A DNA stretch of 15,083 nucleotides from Promethearchaeota archaeon (GTDB lineage: Archaea; Asgardarchaeota; Lokiarchaeia; Sigyniarchaeales; SOKP01): NCBI GenBank assembly GCA_048940925.1, contig JBHLOC010000014.1, positions 1 through 15,083 on the forward strand, read 5' to 3'. The stretch's first letter is position 1. Each line of letters starts with the position of its first letter. Made by a program: the position numbers and the translations under genes. This document shows, piece after piece, positions 4,568-8,813 of this stretch. The notes under the pieces were generated by a model. The model ran no database searches and had not been told where the DNA came from. It saw only the letters and a program-made list of their open reading frames with translations.

Positions 4568-5397
4568 TGATTAAAAATTTAATAAATTATAATTTTTCAA
4601 TAAAACCAATTCTGGAAACATTTTTATTTGAGTTAAAAAAACAATGGAAAAAATTCGTATTTTTTCTTGTCATATCTATTATTGTTGTATTTCTTCAAAG
4701 TTTTTTATTAAATACCTTAATCTCTACAAATTTATTACCTGACACTCAAAGTGATTTCTTTCGCAATGGTCTTGGTTTTCTTTCTCTTCTAATTTTATTT
4801 TCTGGCTGTTTATTTTTTGCAGGAATAATATGTGAAGAATTTAAAACAAAGACAGGGAATATTGTGTTCCCTAAAATAAATAAATATAAGTTAATAGTGG
4901 GAAAATACCTTGGGAATTTGGTTTATATAGTTATAATAATGGGGATTTATTACTTCATGCTTGGACTCTTAGGATTTTATTATTATGGCGGCCCAATTAA
5001 TATTAGAATATATTATTCCTTTGGTTTCGCTTTATTATATCTTTTAGCTATAAGTAGTTTTGTTACTTTTTTTAGTTCGTTCATGAGAAGTCCTACTATA
5101 ACAATTGTAGTGACTATATTATTACTTTTAATTGGATTTAATATTGCTGATTCGATAGTAATTGCAGTTGCACCAGATTTTGAAACTATTTATTCCTTAA
5201 CTTATATGGGCAATCTTATTACTTCAATTCTTATAAATCCATTTCCAGATCCAAGATATATAGATCTTAATATTGGAGAGTTTACAATAAGATCCTGGAT
5301 CACACCAAGTGTCGAAATGGGAATTACAATCTTATTATTATACACTTTTATATGCATGATATTAGCATCCTATTTATTTAAAAGAAGACAATTATAA
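4567..5397 (+). CDS. ABC-2 family transporter permease (6 TM)
   Basis: Start overlaps the ATPase stop (TAATG), with AGGAGG at 4553-4558. Motifs IICEEF..KTG...FPK, K..LIVGKYLG and C-terminal YLFKRRQL are typical of ABC-2/NosY-like permeases. Confidence 0.9.
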   Translation: MIKNLINYNFSIKPILETFLFELKKQWKKFVFFLVISIIVVFLQSFLLNTLISTNLLPDTQSDFFRNGLGFLSLLILFSGCLFFAGIICEEFKTKTGNIVFPKINKYKLIVGKYLGNLVYIVIIMGIYYFMLGLLGFYYYGGPINIRIYYSFGFALLYLLAISSFVTFFSSFMRSPTITIVVTILLLLIGFNIADSIVIAVAPDFETIYSLTYMGNLITSILINPFPDPRYIDLNIGEFTIRSWITPSVEMGITILLLYTFICMILASYLFKRRQL

Positions 5398-5441
5398 GAA
5401 AAGAAAAGTAAAAAAAAAAAATAAAATAATATTTGAAAACA

Positions 5442-6404
5442 ATGAAAAAGAAAACCTTAGTTATAATTTTACTTTCAGTAGTTATAACAAATTTAATATC
5501 AGTTTCTGGTCTTGCCAATTATAATTATCAAATTGCTTTAGAGAAGGGTACTGAAATATTAAAAGTAAAAAAGTATGACAAAGATGCTTGGAAAAACACT
5601 GTAAGTAATTTTACTACTCCTAACGTTTGGTTTGAGGGAGAATCTAATAACACAGGTTCACGGAGTAAGTATGTAATAAAAGGATGGAGGGGATTAACAT
5701 GGAACACTTACGATGTCTTTATTTCAATATTTCTTCCAATATTTCTTGATTCTAAACAAATTGTTCCCTTATTAATGATTATGAACAAATCAGGATATAA
5801 TGAAACAGCTATTAATAATAATTATACTAATAACTACAAATTTTGGGTAGGTTTACGTGCTAAATGGAATTTTACAATTAATGATTTTGATGAAAAACCA
5901 ATTGAATCAAATGATCGTTTCTTAATATTTAAAAATCCTGAAGATTACATTAAGGCTTTGAGTGATTATAATAGTATAGCTCAACAATTGAATAACGATT
6001 TGACAATAAAAATGTCAGGATATTCATTTCCATACTTTGATGGTGATCAATTCTTATGGATTCTTATTCAGAGTGAATTTGCAATAGCAAAACCATTTAA
6101 TAAATACTTGTCAATTTTAGTTGAAGAACTAGGTTGTAATAATGCTACGGTTATTGATAATGTGCTAACAATAAAACGTTTTGGTGAAACGATCTATACC
6201 GTAGAAATCTCTTATGGAACTGAAGGTATCATGGTTTCATTCGTAGTAAAAGATATCAATAATGTTATAATATATCAAATTATAAAGACAAGTTCAGAAT
6301 GGGTTTTTTATATAATTTTACTGATCTTATCAATTTGTATTGTTGTCTTATGTATTTTTATAATACTAAGAAGAAGAAAGATTATGCGAATTCGAAAAAA
6401 ATAA
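5442..6404 (+). CDS. Hypothetical cell-surface (glyco)protein with signal peptide and C-terminal membrane anchor
   Basis: ATG 5442 is preferred over TTG 5433. MKKKTLVIILLSVVI signal-like N-terminus, seven N-X-S/T sequons (NFT, NNT, NKS, NET, NYT, NFT, NAT), and C-terminal TM WVFYIILLILSICIVVLCIFIIL followed by RRRKIMRIRKK. Confidence 0.85.
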   Translation: MKKKTLVIILLSVVITNLISVSGLANYNYQIALEKGTEILKVKKYDKDAWKNTVSNFTTPNVWFEGESNNTGSRSKYVIKGWRGLTWNTYDVFISIFLPIFLDSKQIVPLLMIMNKSGYNETAINNNYTNNYKFWVGLRAKWNFTINDFDEKPIESNDRFLIFKNPEDYIKALSDYNSIAQQLNNDLTIKMSGYSFPYFDGDQFLWILIQSEFAIAKPFNKYLSILVEELGCNNATVIDNVLTIKRFGETIYTVEISYGTEGIMVSFVVKDINNVIIYQIIKTSSEWVFYIILLILSICIVVLCIFIILRRRKIMRIRKK

Positions 6405-6429: not shown

Positions 6430-6445
6430 AAAAAAAGAAAAAAAA
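6430..6445 (-). terminator. Oligo-T tract (T8-C-T7) downstream of hsp20
   Basis: Plus-strand AAAAAAAGAAAAAAAA reads as a long T tract on the minus strand, about 90 nt after the hsp20 stop and just beyond a hairpin. This fits an archaeal-type terminator. Confidence 0.6.
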
Positions 6446-6537: not shown

Positions 6538-7017
6538 TTAATTTTCACTAACATCTATCTTTTTAGCTGGTTTTTTTCTCATAGTTATTTTCAAAAGCCC
6601 GTGAACCATTTTTGAAACTATAGTATCTGTATCAGCATCAACTGGGAGAGGTATATCCATATTAACCTCTATAAAAGTAAAACCTTTCCAGAAAAATGGA
6701 AAATGCCAATCCTGTGGTGAACCTTTTTCATCTGACTCTTCTTTTAAGTTTTCTCTTTCTGGAATTTTAGGTTTCGCTGCTTTAATATTTATATGTTTAT
6801 TAATTAAAGAGACTGTGATATCTTCCTTGGTACGCCCCGCTAAAGGAACTGTAATTAAATAACTGTCTCCAAGATCTTCCACATTGTAGGGAATATATTT
6901 TCCCATAAATCCTTTCATAAAATGTCCGGCCATCCTTTTCATCTTCGCAATATCATGATGTCCAAATGGGAACCAACCAGCGAAAACGTTAGGTCCATAA
7001 GATCTTTCATTACACAT
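6538..7017 (-). CDS. Small heat-shock protein, Hsp20/alpha-crystallin family (atypical)
   Basis: Alpha-crystallin domain pattern YNVED..DSYLITVPLAG..KEDITVSL....INIKA ... IPLP..D...I.SKM.HGLLKITM.K, with C-terminal IDV (IXI/V). AGGAGG SD lies 7 nt upstream of the ATG. Confidence 0.9.
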   Translation of the reverse strand: MCNERSYGPNVFAGWFPFGHHDIAKMKRMAGHFMKGFMGKYIPYNVEDLGDSYLITVPLAGRTKEDITVSLINKHINIKAAKPKIPERENLKEESDEKGSPQDWHFPFFWKGFTFIEVNMDIPLPVDADTDTIVSKMVHGLLKITMRKKPAKKIDVSEN

Positions 7018-7069
7018 TTTTTTGCCTCCTTTTTTTATTAACTATATTTTGTATTTTTATTGGTGATTG

Positions 7070-7720
7070 CTAAAAATTGTAGAATTCATCATCATCAACA
7101 ATAGGTATTGTTTTTGTATTTTCATCTCTTTTTTGGATTAAATCATTTAAAATTATTTTATAGTTTTCAATTTCTTTACCAATTTCATTTAATCTCATTG
7201 AAATCCTCTCCTTACTATATTCTAAATCATTGATAATTCTTTTAACTCGGTTAATATTTGTTAAAGAATAATCATTTTGATCAATTTCTCTTTCAATCGG
7301 TCTATAATGAAAAGGGAAGCATGACATAACATGATTAACCCTTTTTTCATTAGGTAACCATGCATTTACAATTGTTTGTATGAAATCTCCAAGTGTTTTC
7401 ATGCTTGATTCAAAATTATTTTTTAAAACAACTTTTAATCTTTCTATCCCTGCAACTGTAATTGTATAAAGTTTTTTGTGACGATTACTTTCATCAATGA
7501 TTTCTTCTGACTCGACAAAACCCCTCTCTTCTAACCTATTCATTAGGGGATATATGGTTCCAGGTGAAGCTTTCCACAAAGGTTTAAATTTTTTATTAAT
7601 TTCTTGCGTTATTTCATATCCTGATATACCCTTACGGTTTTTTATTATGGATAGAACCAAGATATCTAAACCTGAAAATATTCCTCCATGATGTCCACTA
7701 AAACGTTTACCAAAAAACAA
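7070..7720 (-). CDS. PadR family transcriptional regulator with C-terminal coiled-coil extension
   Basis: ILVLSII....ISGYEI, W.ASPGTIYPLM.RLEERGFV and KKLY.IT..G...L form a PadR wHTH. TTG start is preceded by SD-like GGTGGTG. A heptad pattern runs over aa ~153-197. Confidence 0.93.
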   Translation of the reverse strand: MFFGKRFSGHHGGIFSGLDILVLSIIKNRKGISGYEITQEINKKFKPLWKASPGTIYPLMNRLEERGFVESEEIIDESNRHKKLYTITVAGIERLKVVLKNNFESSMKTLGDFIQTIVNAWLPNEKRVNHVMSCFPFHYRPIEREIDQNDYSLTNINRVKRIINDLEYSKERISMRLNEIGKEIENYKIILNDLIQKRDENTKTIPIVDDDEFYNF

Positions 7721-7734
7721 TTTTTATACACCAC

Positions 7735-7821
7735 CGATATGTTCGATATTTAATATATCATAAATCGAATATCAATTAATTAATATTAAATCAACTATAT
7801 AAATATATCGAAATCGAATAT
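7735..7821 (-). promoter_or_regulatory. padR-hsp20 promoter with TATA box and repeated operator-like elements
   Basis: Minus-strand TTTATATA at 7803-7796. Near-direct repeats (+ strand) AATATATC-AT-AAATCGAATAT 7752-7772 and AATATATC-G-AAATCGAATAT 7802-7821. Palindrome GATAT-N5-ATATC at 7745-7759 and TTCGAT-N16-ATCGAA at 7742-7769. Confidence 0.6.
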
Positions 7822-8081: not shown

Positions 8082-8813
8082 ATGTTAGCACAATTATCAG
8101 CTTTTGAAGTTTTTTATGGAAGTTTCACATTCGCATCTGTTATTATATCTACATTATTAGGTCTTTTCATTGCATTAAAATATAGAGAACATAAAAAAGT
8201 AGAATTACTATTAGTTGGAATTACATGGATTCTACTAGCAAGTCCTTACTGGTCCGATGCAATACAATTTATTATAGTTATGGTATCAAACACAGAATTA
8301 AACCCTCCAATATATTTCTTTTTAGCTAATGCTTTTATTGCACCCATTCACATTACTTGGGCTTATGTTTTCACATCTCTTCTTTTTAAAAAGCAGAAAA
8401 AGATACTCTTGGTCTTTTTTGGATCTGAAGCCACTATATTTGAAATTGCGTTCTTAATTATATTTTTCATTGATCCAACTTTAATTGGTACTCCACAAAG
8501 TTATTTTGTGGTAGAGTGGGCGATATGGGTTCAAATTTATTTATTATTTTCTATAATTCTTTTCTTAATTACAGGATTTCTGTTTGCAAGGGCAAGTCTT
8601 AAATCAGAAAATCCTGAACTTAAATTAAAAGGAAAATTTTTAATTTTAGCATTCATAACTTTTACCATTGGAACTATAATAGATGTCATTGGAGCAGAAA
8701 GCCCTACAGAAATAATAATTCTTCTTGCGAGAACTTTTGTAATTATCAGTTCTATTAGTTTTTATATTGGATATACACTTCCTAAATTCATTAAGGATCG
8801 ACTTATAAAATAA
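8082..8813 (+). CDS. Stand-alone seven-transmembrane protein (HisKA_7TM-like sensor topology, no output domain)
   Basis: Seven hydrophobic segments (about aa 9-33, 42-66, 77-101, 108-130, 146-170, 186-204, 211-232). Basic loops after TM1, TM3 and TM5 and a basic tail imply N-out/C-in. The family assignment is from recall of similar Asgard proteins and is not verified. Confidence 0.75.
   Translation: MLAQLSAFEVFYGSFTFASVIISTLLGLFIALKYREHKKVELLLVGITWILLASPYWSDAIQFIIVMVSNTELNPPIYFFLANAFIAPIHITWAYVFTSLLFKKQKKILLVFFGSEATIFEIAFLIIFFIDPTLIGTPQSYFVVEWAIWVQIYLLFSIILFLITGFLFARASLKSENPELKLKGKFLILAFITFTIGTIIDVIGAESPTEIIILLARTFVIISSISFYIGYTLPKFIKDRLIK

Follow-up and report, generated by a model that had tools for sequence, protein, structure and literature searches.

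A PadR-family regulator with a tail resembling a small heat-shock protein anchor is encoded with hsp20 in Lokiarchaeia: a candidate chaperone-feedback operon

Several regulators of chaperone genes are titrated by the chaperones themselves, as is the case for HspR with DnaK, for HrcA with GroEL and for sigma-32 with DnaK and GroEL. In Escherichia coli, the small heat-shock protein (sHsp) IbpA senses aggregation and feeds back on its own expression, and is itself titrated by aggregates (PMC10474464, PMC10410725; preprint 10.1101/2020.04.20.050740). For the archaeon Pyrococcus furiosus, Phr is described as a negative regulator that acts at palindromes of heat-inducible promoters, including that of hsp20 (PMC10746257). 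Here, we describe padR-hsp20, a pair of adjacent genes in a Promethearchaeota archaeon of the class Lokiarchaeia (source genome of ∼4.8 Mb), in which a PadR-family regulator is encoded directly upstream of an sHsp. The pair lies on contig JBHLOC010000014.1, the 15 083 nucleotides (nt) of which were analysed as a whole and are referred to below as the window; all features of the pair and of its promoter are on the minus strand. A full-text literature search found no publication on a PadR–sHsp circuit, as an earlier reading of the window from its letters (the sequence-only reading) had suggested without excluding one, and none on a transcription factor bearing the I-x-I motif of sHsp tails. It found no described heat-shock regulator for Lokiarchaeia, and the sole sHsp feedback that it returned was that of IbpA on its own mRNA in γ-proteobacteria.

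The reading that we favour, to which we assign a probability of about 0.5, is that padR-hsp20 is a self-regulated stress operon in which the PadR tail would dock in the β4/β8 groove of its own Hsp20, with operator occupancy following the number of free grooves. This proposal is partly supported: the comparative genomics is strong, while the binding and the regulation are predicted. Like HspR, HrcA and sigma-32, PadR would be a regulator of a chaperone gene that is encoded with the chaperone and autoregulated, and its activity is proposed to follow the free chaperone; unlike them, it is an archaeal member of the PadR family, its partner is an ATP-independent sHsp and the contact would be made through a motif that mimics the assembly anchor of the chaperone and not through a client-like unfolded state. 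The circuit would resemble that of IbpA in that an sHsp serves as the sensor and thereby influences its own expression, but IbpA acts on translation through the 5′ untranslated regions of its own mRNA and of rpoH, whereas padR-hsp20 is proposed to act on transcription through a separate repressor with an I-x-I tail. Phr is a winged-helix repressor with hsp20 among its targets, as is proposed for PadR; it is, however, of a different family, its regulon comprises ten or more genes whereas the padR box is unique to one promoter, and the available part of PMC10746257 describes no I-x-I tail for it. The PDB sequence matches of PadR are all PadR, MarR or BlaI-like proteins. Homology of PadR to Phr/HSR1 was considered and rejected, as neither the 48 PDB sequence matches (E ≤ 1) nor the Foldseek matches listed include 2P4W, which we take to be the solved structure of Phr.

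The padR gene (7070–7720) encodes a regulator of 216 residues and hsp20 (6538–7017) encodes an sHsp of 159 residues that starts with Met-Cys. The TTG start codon of padR is secure because the N-terminus that it defines (M-F-F-G-K-R-F-S-G) is invariant across homologues. The two genes are separated by a spacer of 52 nt (7018–7069) with an AGGAGG element at 7025–7030, and spacers in orthologous loci are mostly 35–60 nt long. A sequence scan found no terminator-like site in the 52 nt; the spacer is short and has no T-run, and therefore padR and hsp20 are probably co-transcribed. An oligo-T run, T8-C-T7, at 6430–6445, ∼95 nt past the hsp20 stop codon, is likely to be the archaeal oligo-T terminator of the operon, as judged from sequence only.

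The arrangement is highly conserved. A scan of orthologous loci with one genome per species yielded 67 loci, three of which are cut by contig ends, and hsp20 lies directly downstream of padR on the same strand in all of the 64 that are informative (64/67 in total). In a set of 400 genomes of the phylum, PadR orthologues (E < 1e-25) were found in 95 of the 134 genomes of the GTDB family of the window (f1) and in 0/266 across 32 other families, and the close homologues are all from metagenome-assembled genomes of the Lokiarchaeia/Promethearchaeota type. With a profile made from more distant look-alikes, the gene was found once per genome in two further families, the sister families f3 (10/14 genomes) and f5 (2/3), with hsp20 downstream of padR at all 12 loci. 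The pair is also present in closed sister-family genomes that consist of a single contig (G135, G138 and G143). We also collected 50%-identity clusters of PadR-like proteins that end in I-x-I; seven of the eight informative distant clusters have an hsp20 neighbour (P0152, P0155 and P0160 are uninformative, their contigs being short or cut). In three GTDB families, all of the same class, the adjacency is thus all but universal. In the distant lineages L093 (2800–4081) and L125 (11–1214), hsp20 likewise follows the gene of a PadR-like protein that ends in I-x-I. In L075, a 6-Mb genome of a sister family in which padR-hsp20 spacers of 400–700 nt are typical, hsp20 is flanked by two candidate genes without a Pfam family (4887–5126, 79 residues, and 5625–5834, 69 residues), the former of which is located between padR and hsp20. 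A 2.4-kb contig binned as 'Omnitrophota bacterium' (L068; JAGLHE010000293.1) contains a padR fragment that is 61% identical and is preceded by promoter boxes of the Lokiarchaeial type; the contig is most probably mis-binned archaeal DNA.

PadR matches the Pfam family PF03551 at residues 22–96 (E = 7e-17; 61.6 bits versus a cut-off of 27), which defines its winged helix-turn-helix (wHTH) domain (7433–7657). The structure of PadR was predicted with AlphaFold2 from an alignment of 22 PadR orthologues. The model, in which the PF03551 region has a predicted local distance difference test score (pLDDT) of 82–92, consists of the wHTH (residues 17–87), a helix (residues 89–121), a linker of low confidence, a second helix (residues 153–201) and a tail in coil conformation (residues 202–216). 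Foldseek matched solved PadR structures with a probability of 1.00 and with template-modelling scores, by target, of 0.73–0.77 (3hhh, 4esb, 1xma and 5zi8). Bacillus subtilis PadR and LmrR (5x11 and 3f8b) have the same wHTH and helix fold and autoregulate through repeats in the promoter region of their own genes, as is proposed here; they sense small molecules (phenolic acids and drugs) through a C-terminal domain or the dimer pore. The C-terminal half of our PadR is unlike theirs in that a single long helix follows a disordered linker and leads into the tail with the motif, with a root-mean-square deviation (r.m.s.d.) of ∼14 Å over the full length. The ligand-binding helical domain of the B. 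subtilis PadR type (subfamily 1) is not recognized in it, the C-terminal half superposing poorly (r.m.s.d. of 14–15 Å over 175–190 columns). Neither PadR nor Hsp20 reaches any curated NCBIfam equivalog cut-off, and we therefore regard the two as lineage-specific subfamilies.

The long C-terminal helix (residues 153–201; 7118–7264), modelled as a single helix, is presumed to be a coiled-coil or dimerization element and is the least conserved part of PadR, with a mean top-residue frequency of 0.60 among 59 orthologues. The tail that follows it (residues 202–216; 7073–7117) contains K-T-I-P-I-V-D-D-D-E-F-Y-N-F, with I-P-I at residues 205–207 (nt 7100–7108), and is predicted to be coil with a pLDDT of 55–63. 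Its mean top-residue frequency in the same orthologues is 0.77, equal to that of the wHTH (0.77) and higher than that of the helix; Ile205 and Ile207 are each conserved in 98%, Lys203 and Asp209 in 93% and Phe216 in 86%, and the middle residue of the I-x-I is proline in 38 and glutamate in 21 of the 59. Because a disordered segment is so strongly constrained, we regard the tail as a functional short linear motif. In the sister families the aromatic end is gone, while the I-x-I and the acidic residues persist, for example as K-I-P-I-V-E-D-D at the very end of the protein. Only one of the ten PadR paralogues of the source genome has the tail, and this same paralogue is the only one that adjoins hsp20. 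Another paralogue of this genome (G000:C68:12257-12406) begins with an extension rich in proline, phenylalanine and glycine (a run of the P-P-F-G-G-F-P-P-F-G-P type); its C-terminal part is long and helical and lacks the I-x-I end.

The sequence of the tail resembles the C-terminal anchor of its genetic partner. The pattern [IVL]-x-[IV] with acidic residues after it occurs in both partners in 80 of 80 PadR/sHsp pairs, and the two tails are often similar, such as K-I-P-I-V-E-D-D with K-V-P-I-A-E-E-E in L094 and P-V-K-V-V with T-V-K-V-E in L095. When the hydrophobic anchor columns were excluded, the similarity of the flanks was 4.22 for cognate pairs compared with 2.77 ± 0.48 for shuffled pairs, a value that was reached by 0.2% of 20 000 shuffles in a statistic that ignores shared ancestry; the similarity is therefore only suggestive of tail matching. 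Ligands of the IPV or I-x-I type, namely sHsp tails, the IPV of BAG3 and tau, bind to the sHsp groove and compete for it (PMC6212398). Like these ligands, the PadR tail is a disordered segment that carries an [IV]-x-[IV], here with basic residues before it and acidic residues after it, as in the tail of the partner; unlike the ligands compared, PadR is a transcription factor and its docking is a prediction to which modelling lends weak support.

These comparisons bear out much of the sequence-only reading. Its genes, their coordinates and the 52-nt gap are as it gave them, and the motifs on which it built (C-F-P-F-H and I-P-I in PadR, and the K-K-I-D-V-S-E-N end and two F-P-F motifs in Hsp20) lie where it placed them. 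The conservation of I-P-I/V that it called for is found, in the I-x-I form, in the orthologues and in the 80 pairs, and the adjacency of the two genes is far from sporadic. The coiled coil that it proposed after the wHTH corresponds to the single long helix of the model, with the pairing itself being presumed. An N-terminal G-H-H shared by both proteins, to which it also drew attention, is not conserved among the orthologues of either PadR or Hsp20 and was dropped.

Hsp20 is an sHsp by domain and by predicted fold. It matches Pfam family PF00011 (E = 5e-9; 36.7 bits versus a cut-off of 20.8), and every top-ranking Foldseek match is an sHsp of known structure, among them archaeal Hsp14.0 in complex with a C-terminal peptide (PDB entry 3vqm). 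Its scores against the NCBIfam equivalogs for archaeal Hsp14/Hsp20 are well below the thresholds (31.3 bits versus 100 for NF041799 and 20.6 versus 140 for NF041800), by which Hsp20 is classed as a separate, lineage-specific sHsp subfamily. The AlphaFold2 model has a disordered N-terminal arm, a helix (residues 20–36), a confident α-crystallin domain (ACD; residues 45–148; 6574–6885) with strands at a pLDDT of 87–92 and a long disordered β5–β7 loop (residues 87–112), and a short C-terminal extension. The groove strands β4 and β8 are among the best conserved columns of the ACD, the β4 (V-x-V-S-L) and β8/9 (S-K-M-x-N-G-L-L) columns being nearly invariant in orthologues. Hsp20 also has its own C-terminal anchor, I-D-V (residues 154–156; 6550–6558), which is conserved in orthologues as K-K-P-A-K-x-I-[DN]-[IV]. 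All seven sHsps of the source genome terminate in I-x-I. Two of its canonical sHsp genes are arranged in tandem at G000:C7:82174-83295, with Pfam scores of up to 94.9 bits and ends of K-I-E-I-K and V-I-E-I-K; they have neither a PadR neighbour nor an operator box, and the PadR tail could potentially dock on their products as well.

The promoter region of padR contains an exact 11-nt repeat in two copies, 49 nt apart. The first copy forms operator-like box 1, ATATTCGAT-N3-GATATAT (7803–7821), which abuts a candidate TATA box, TTTATATA (7796–7803), on its upstream side, where the B-recognition element (BRE) is expected; the assignment of the TATA box is tentative, and in orthologous promoters either TTTAAATA or TTTATATA comes after box 1. 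The second copy, box 2, ATATTCGATTTATGATATAT (7753–7772), lies where transcription is expected to begin, ∼25 nt downstream of the TATA box, and pairs as an inverted repeat with an inverted TCGAA half-site, AATATCGAACAT (7739–7750). A Shine–Dalgarno-like GGTGGTG (7729–7735) is located 8 nt upstream of the TTG codon, at which position orthologues conserve a (T)GGTGA-type element. When ∼60 orthologous promoters are placed in register, the box consensus is (A/G)T(A/G)TTCGAT-N4-GATA(T/C)AT, with a spacer of N3 in copy 1 of the window, and box 1 is found in the matching position in most of the 60. This layout fits an archaeal repressor that blocks the binding of TBP and TFB and the recruitment of polymerase. 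The promoters of the sister families have clean palindromes, TATTCGA-N2-3-TCGAATA (of the form TTCGA-N2-3-TCGAA), at both box positions, and in that of L093 the element T-G-T-A-G-A-T-T-T-C-T-A-C-A occurs twice around the TATA box. As L093 retains the arrangement with a different operator, the layout predates the sequence of the operator.

In a position-weight scan of the 4.8-Mb genome, box 2 is the sole strong match (27.7 bits, with the next best at 17.1 bits). A multi-gene regulon like that of Phr was considered and, with this box model, rejected, since both a strict pattern and the position-weight scan lead genome-wide to the padR promoter only. At the sister-family loci with long spacers (400–700 nt), an operator copy precedes hsp20 in only one of 11, and otherwise the operator is at padR. 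The single operator-bearing promoter at padR, together with the uniqueness of the box, therefore points to a dedicated, autoregulated two-gene operon.

In the mechanism that we propose, a PadR dimer would bind to both boxes, on the BRE side of the TATA box and at the expected transcription start, and shut off padR and hsp20. The tail, with basic residues, I-x-I and an acidic run in succession, would copy the C-terminal anchor of the sHsp and dock in the β4/β8 groove of Hsp20, such that the activity of the repressor would track the free grooves and with them the amount, the assembly state or the client load of the sHsp. Two variants are conceivable. In the co-repressor variant, free Hsp20 would strengthen repression and would be titrated away by clients or by self-assembly, which would make the circuit homeostatic, as with HspR and DnaK or HrcA and GroEL; in the sequestration variant, sHsp dimers that have been activated and have dissociated would capture the tail and pull PadR off the DNA. 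The sequence-only reading had likewise proposed that PadR binds Hsp20 by motif mimicry and is controlled by free Hsp20. The conservation of the tail and the gene linkage agree with that proposal, in which docking and control are still predictions, and the region that it had singled out for electrophoretic mobility shift assays (7735–7821) does contain the conserved operator-like boxes.

The complex that it had expected was modelled from two copies of the ACD (residues 40–150, with its own tail removed) and residues 180–216 of PadR, all supplied as alignments. The interface score ipSAE was 0.35 (0.38, 0.32 and 0.35 in the individual runs) compared with 0.15 for the best control, with a contact agreement of at least 88% between runs and a partner pLDDT of at least 64. 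The outcome is graded as weak support for the pairing. In the calibration, 58 of 80 solved complexes and two of 110 mismatched pairs attained the ipSAE mark; the passes at values of 0.60 or below comprised only seven of the 80 solved complexes, together with both of the mismatched pairs. The pass may mirror a likeness to solved peptide-in-groove complexes such as 3vqm, and since such complexes have already been solved, we treat the model as a small increment only.

Several points weigh against docking in the groove as the basis of the circuit. The complex score is low and, by the calibration, a pass of this kind is wrong in the majority of cases if the pairing was not already probable. The bare [IVL]-x-[IV] pattern is very short and easily arises by chance, and the tail similarity and the adjacency counts rest on related genomes and lack independence. 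The middle residue in the family of the window is proline or glutamate in the PadR tail and aspartate or asparagine in the sHsp; one cluster of PadR proteins with an I-x-I tail, P0190, lacks an hsp20 neighbour, and the box of the f1 family is not a clean palindrome, unlike classical PadR operators. Moreover, docking alone leaves unexplained the conserved acidic-aromatic end of the tail, D-D-D-E-[YF]-x-x-F, the single conserved cysteines of PadR and Hsp20 and the C-F-P-F motif of the linker. As regards novelty, a dedicated repressor of an archaeal sHsp gene is already known in Phr, which acts on Pyrococcus hsp20 (PMC10746257).

The motif just mentioned, S-C-F-P-F-H (residues 133–138, 7307–7324; C-F-P-F-H at residues 134–138, 7307–7321), lies in the linker that is predicted to be disordered (residues 136–143 have a pLDDT below 50) and holds Cys134, the sole cysteine of PadR. 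Its conservation in the 59 orthologues is 93% for Cys134, 98% for Phe135 and 100% for Pro136, and the motif is invariant as S-C-F-P-F/Y; the linkers of the sister families carry Cys-Gly-rich motifs. A similar motif, G-[CW]-F-[PQ]-F-x-P, occurs in the N-terminal arm of the sHsp (residues 14–18; 6964–6978), and the sHsp arms of the sister families contain Cys-Gly-rich, His-bearing motifs. The likeness of the arm and linker motifs could be a second piece of mimicry, which is conceivable because aromatic motifs of sHsp N-terminal arms bind to the ACD (PMC6791718). Hsp20 also has a single cysteine, Cys2 (7012–7014), which is at least 90% conserved and lies in a disordered segment; it and Cys134 may constitute a thiol, metal or oxygen input in anaerobes. 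A broader and more speculative extension, which we consider doubtful, is that PadR is an sHsp 'pseudo-subunit' that copies both the I-x-I and the C-F-P-F handles and would enter or leave the sHsp oligomer depending on how that oligomer is assembled. A thiol or oxygen input through Cys134 and Cys2 would come in addition, which would make PadR a transcription switch of anaerobic Lokiarchaea for proteotoxic and oxidative stress and the first Asgard stress regulator to be defined.

The same linker motif is central to an unlikely but serious alternative, in which PadR is an autonomous sensor-repressor without chaperone contact that responds through heat-labile pairing of the helix, as parallels such as the heat-labile regulators RheA, TlpA and CtsR would suggest, or through oxidation of or metal binding to Cys134, with the tail serving the structure of PadR itself, for example by bridging dimers 49 nt apart. 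The length and sequence variability of helix 153–201 are those of a coiled coil, the single cysteine is highly conserved within the invariant C-F-P motif, the linkers of relatives are rich in cysteine and glycine and there are two operator boxes at this distance. In addition, Phr is a heat-shock repressor for which the available part of PMC10746257 names no chaperone partner. An autonomous sensor leaves unexplained why all lineages have a tail that copies the sHsp anchor even as the helix diverges, and why the tail is restricted to the hsp20-linked paralogue. The tail is also not docked on PadR itself in the AlphaFold2 monomer, and PadR has no α-crystallin-type receptor for it.

In the first of two further alternatives, the tail does dock on the sHsp but with the roles reversed. 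Hsp20 might be a holdase that keeps PadR soluble, or the two might form a stable heteromeric DNA-binding complex without signalling, in which case PadR would be a client or adaptor and not a sensor. Linkage and motif evidence fit this as well as they fit feedback by docking, and Hsp20 is divergent, below the equivalog cut-offs and unusual in its Cys- and His-bearing N-terminal arm; however, a constitutive complex would more likely need an interface larger than a three-residue anchor, and Hsp20 retains the hallmarks of an oligomerizing chaperone (the ACD, its own I-x-I and the aromatic arm), and we consider such a role improbable. It also appears very improbable that the tail serves to mark PadR for degradation or handover and that its likeness to I-x-I is incidental, whereby Cdc48/VAT, the PAN–proteasome or Lon would recognize the acidic-aromatic end and turnover of PadR would bring about derepression. 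The regulated proteolysis of bacterial heat-shock regulators is established for sigma-32 and CtsR, and conservation of the PadR C-terminus does extend beyond the I-x-I through D-D-D-E-[YF]-x-x-F to Phe216. Such a signal is difficult to reconcile with the sister families, which lack the aromatic end; furthermore, PadR has no HbYX-type end, and the loci inspected show neither a protease gene nor an unfoldase gene linked to the operon.

The operon is flanked by two open reading frames on the plus strand that encode membrane proteins without a Pfam family (5433–6404, 323 residues, and 8082–8813, 243 residues). The remaining genes of the window encode ABC-transporter, oligopeptide-permease, HAD and sugar-nucleotide enzymes, none of which is stress-related. 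A scan for sigma-70 promoters gave 12 sites versus 11.5 expected, which is chance level for a bacterial model that does not apply to archaea, and a scan for hairpin terminators, for which the bacterial-type model likewise does not apply to archaea, found none.

How cells gauge the state of their ATP-independent sHsps is largely open, and a repressor that plugs the groove of an sHsp would, if the proposed docking is correct, link transcription to the occupancy of a chaperone in a manner that is both new and simple. The rule that the tail of a regulator copies the tail of its chaperone could guide the search for comparable circuits elsewhere. For the organism itself, PadR would be the first candidate for a regulator of the stress response in Lokiarchaeia, the class to which the cultured archaeal relatives of eukaryotes belong.

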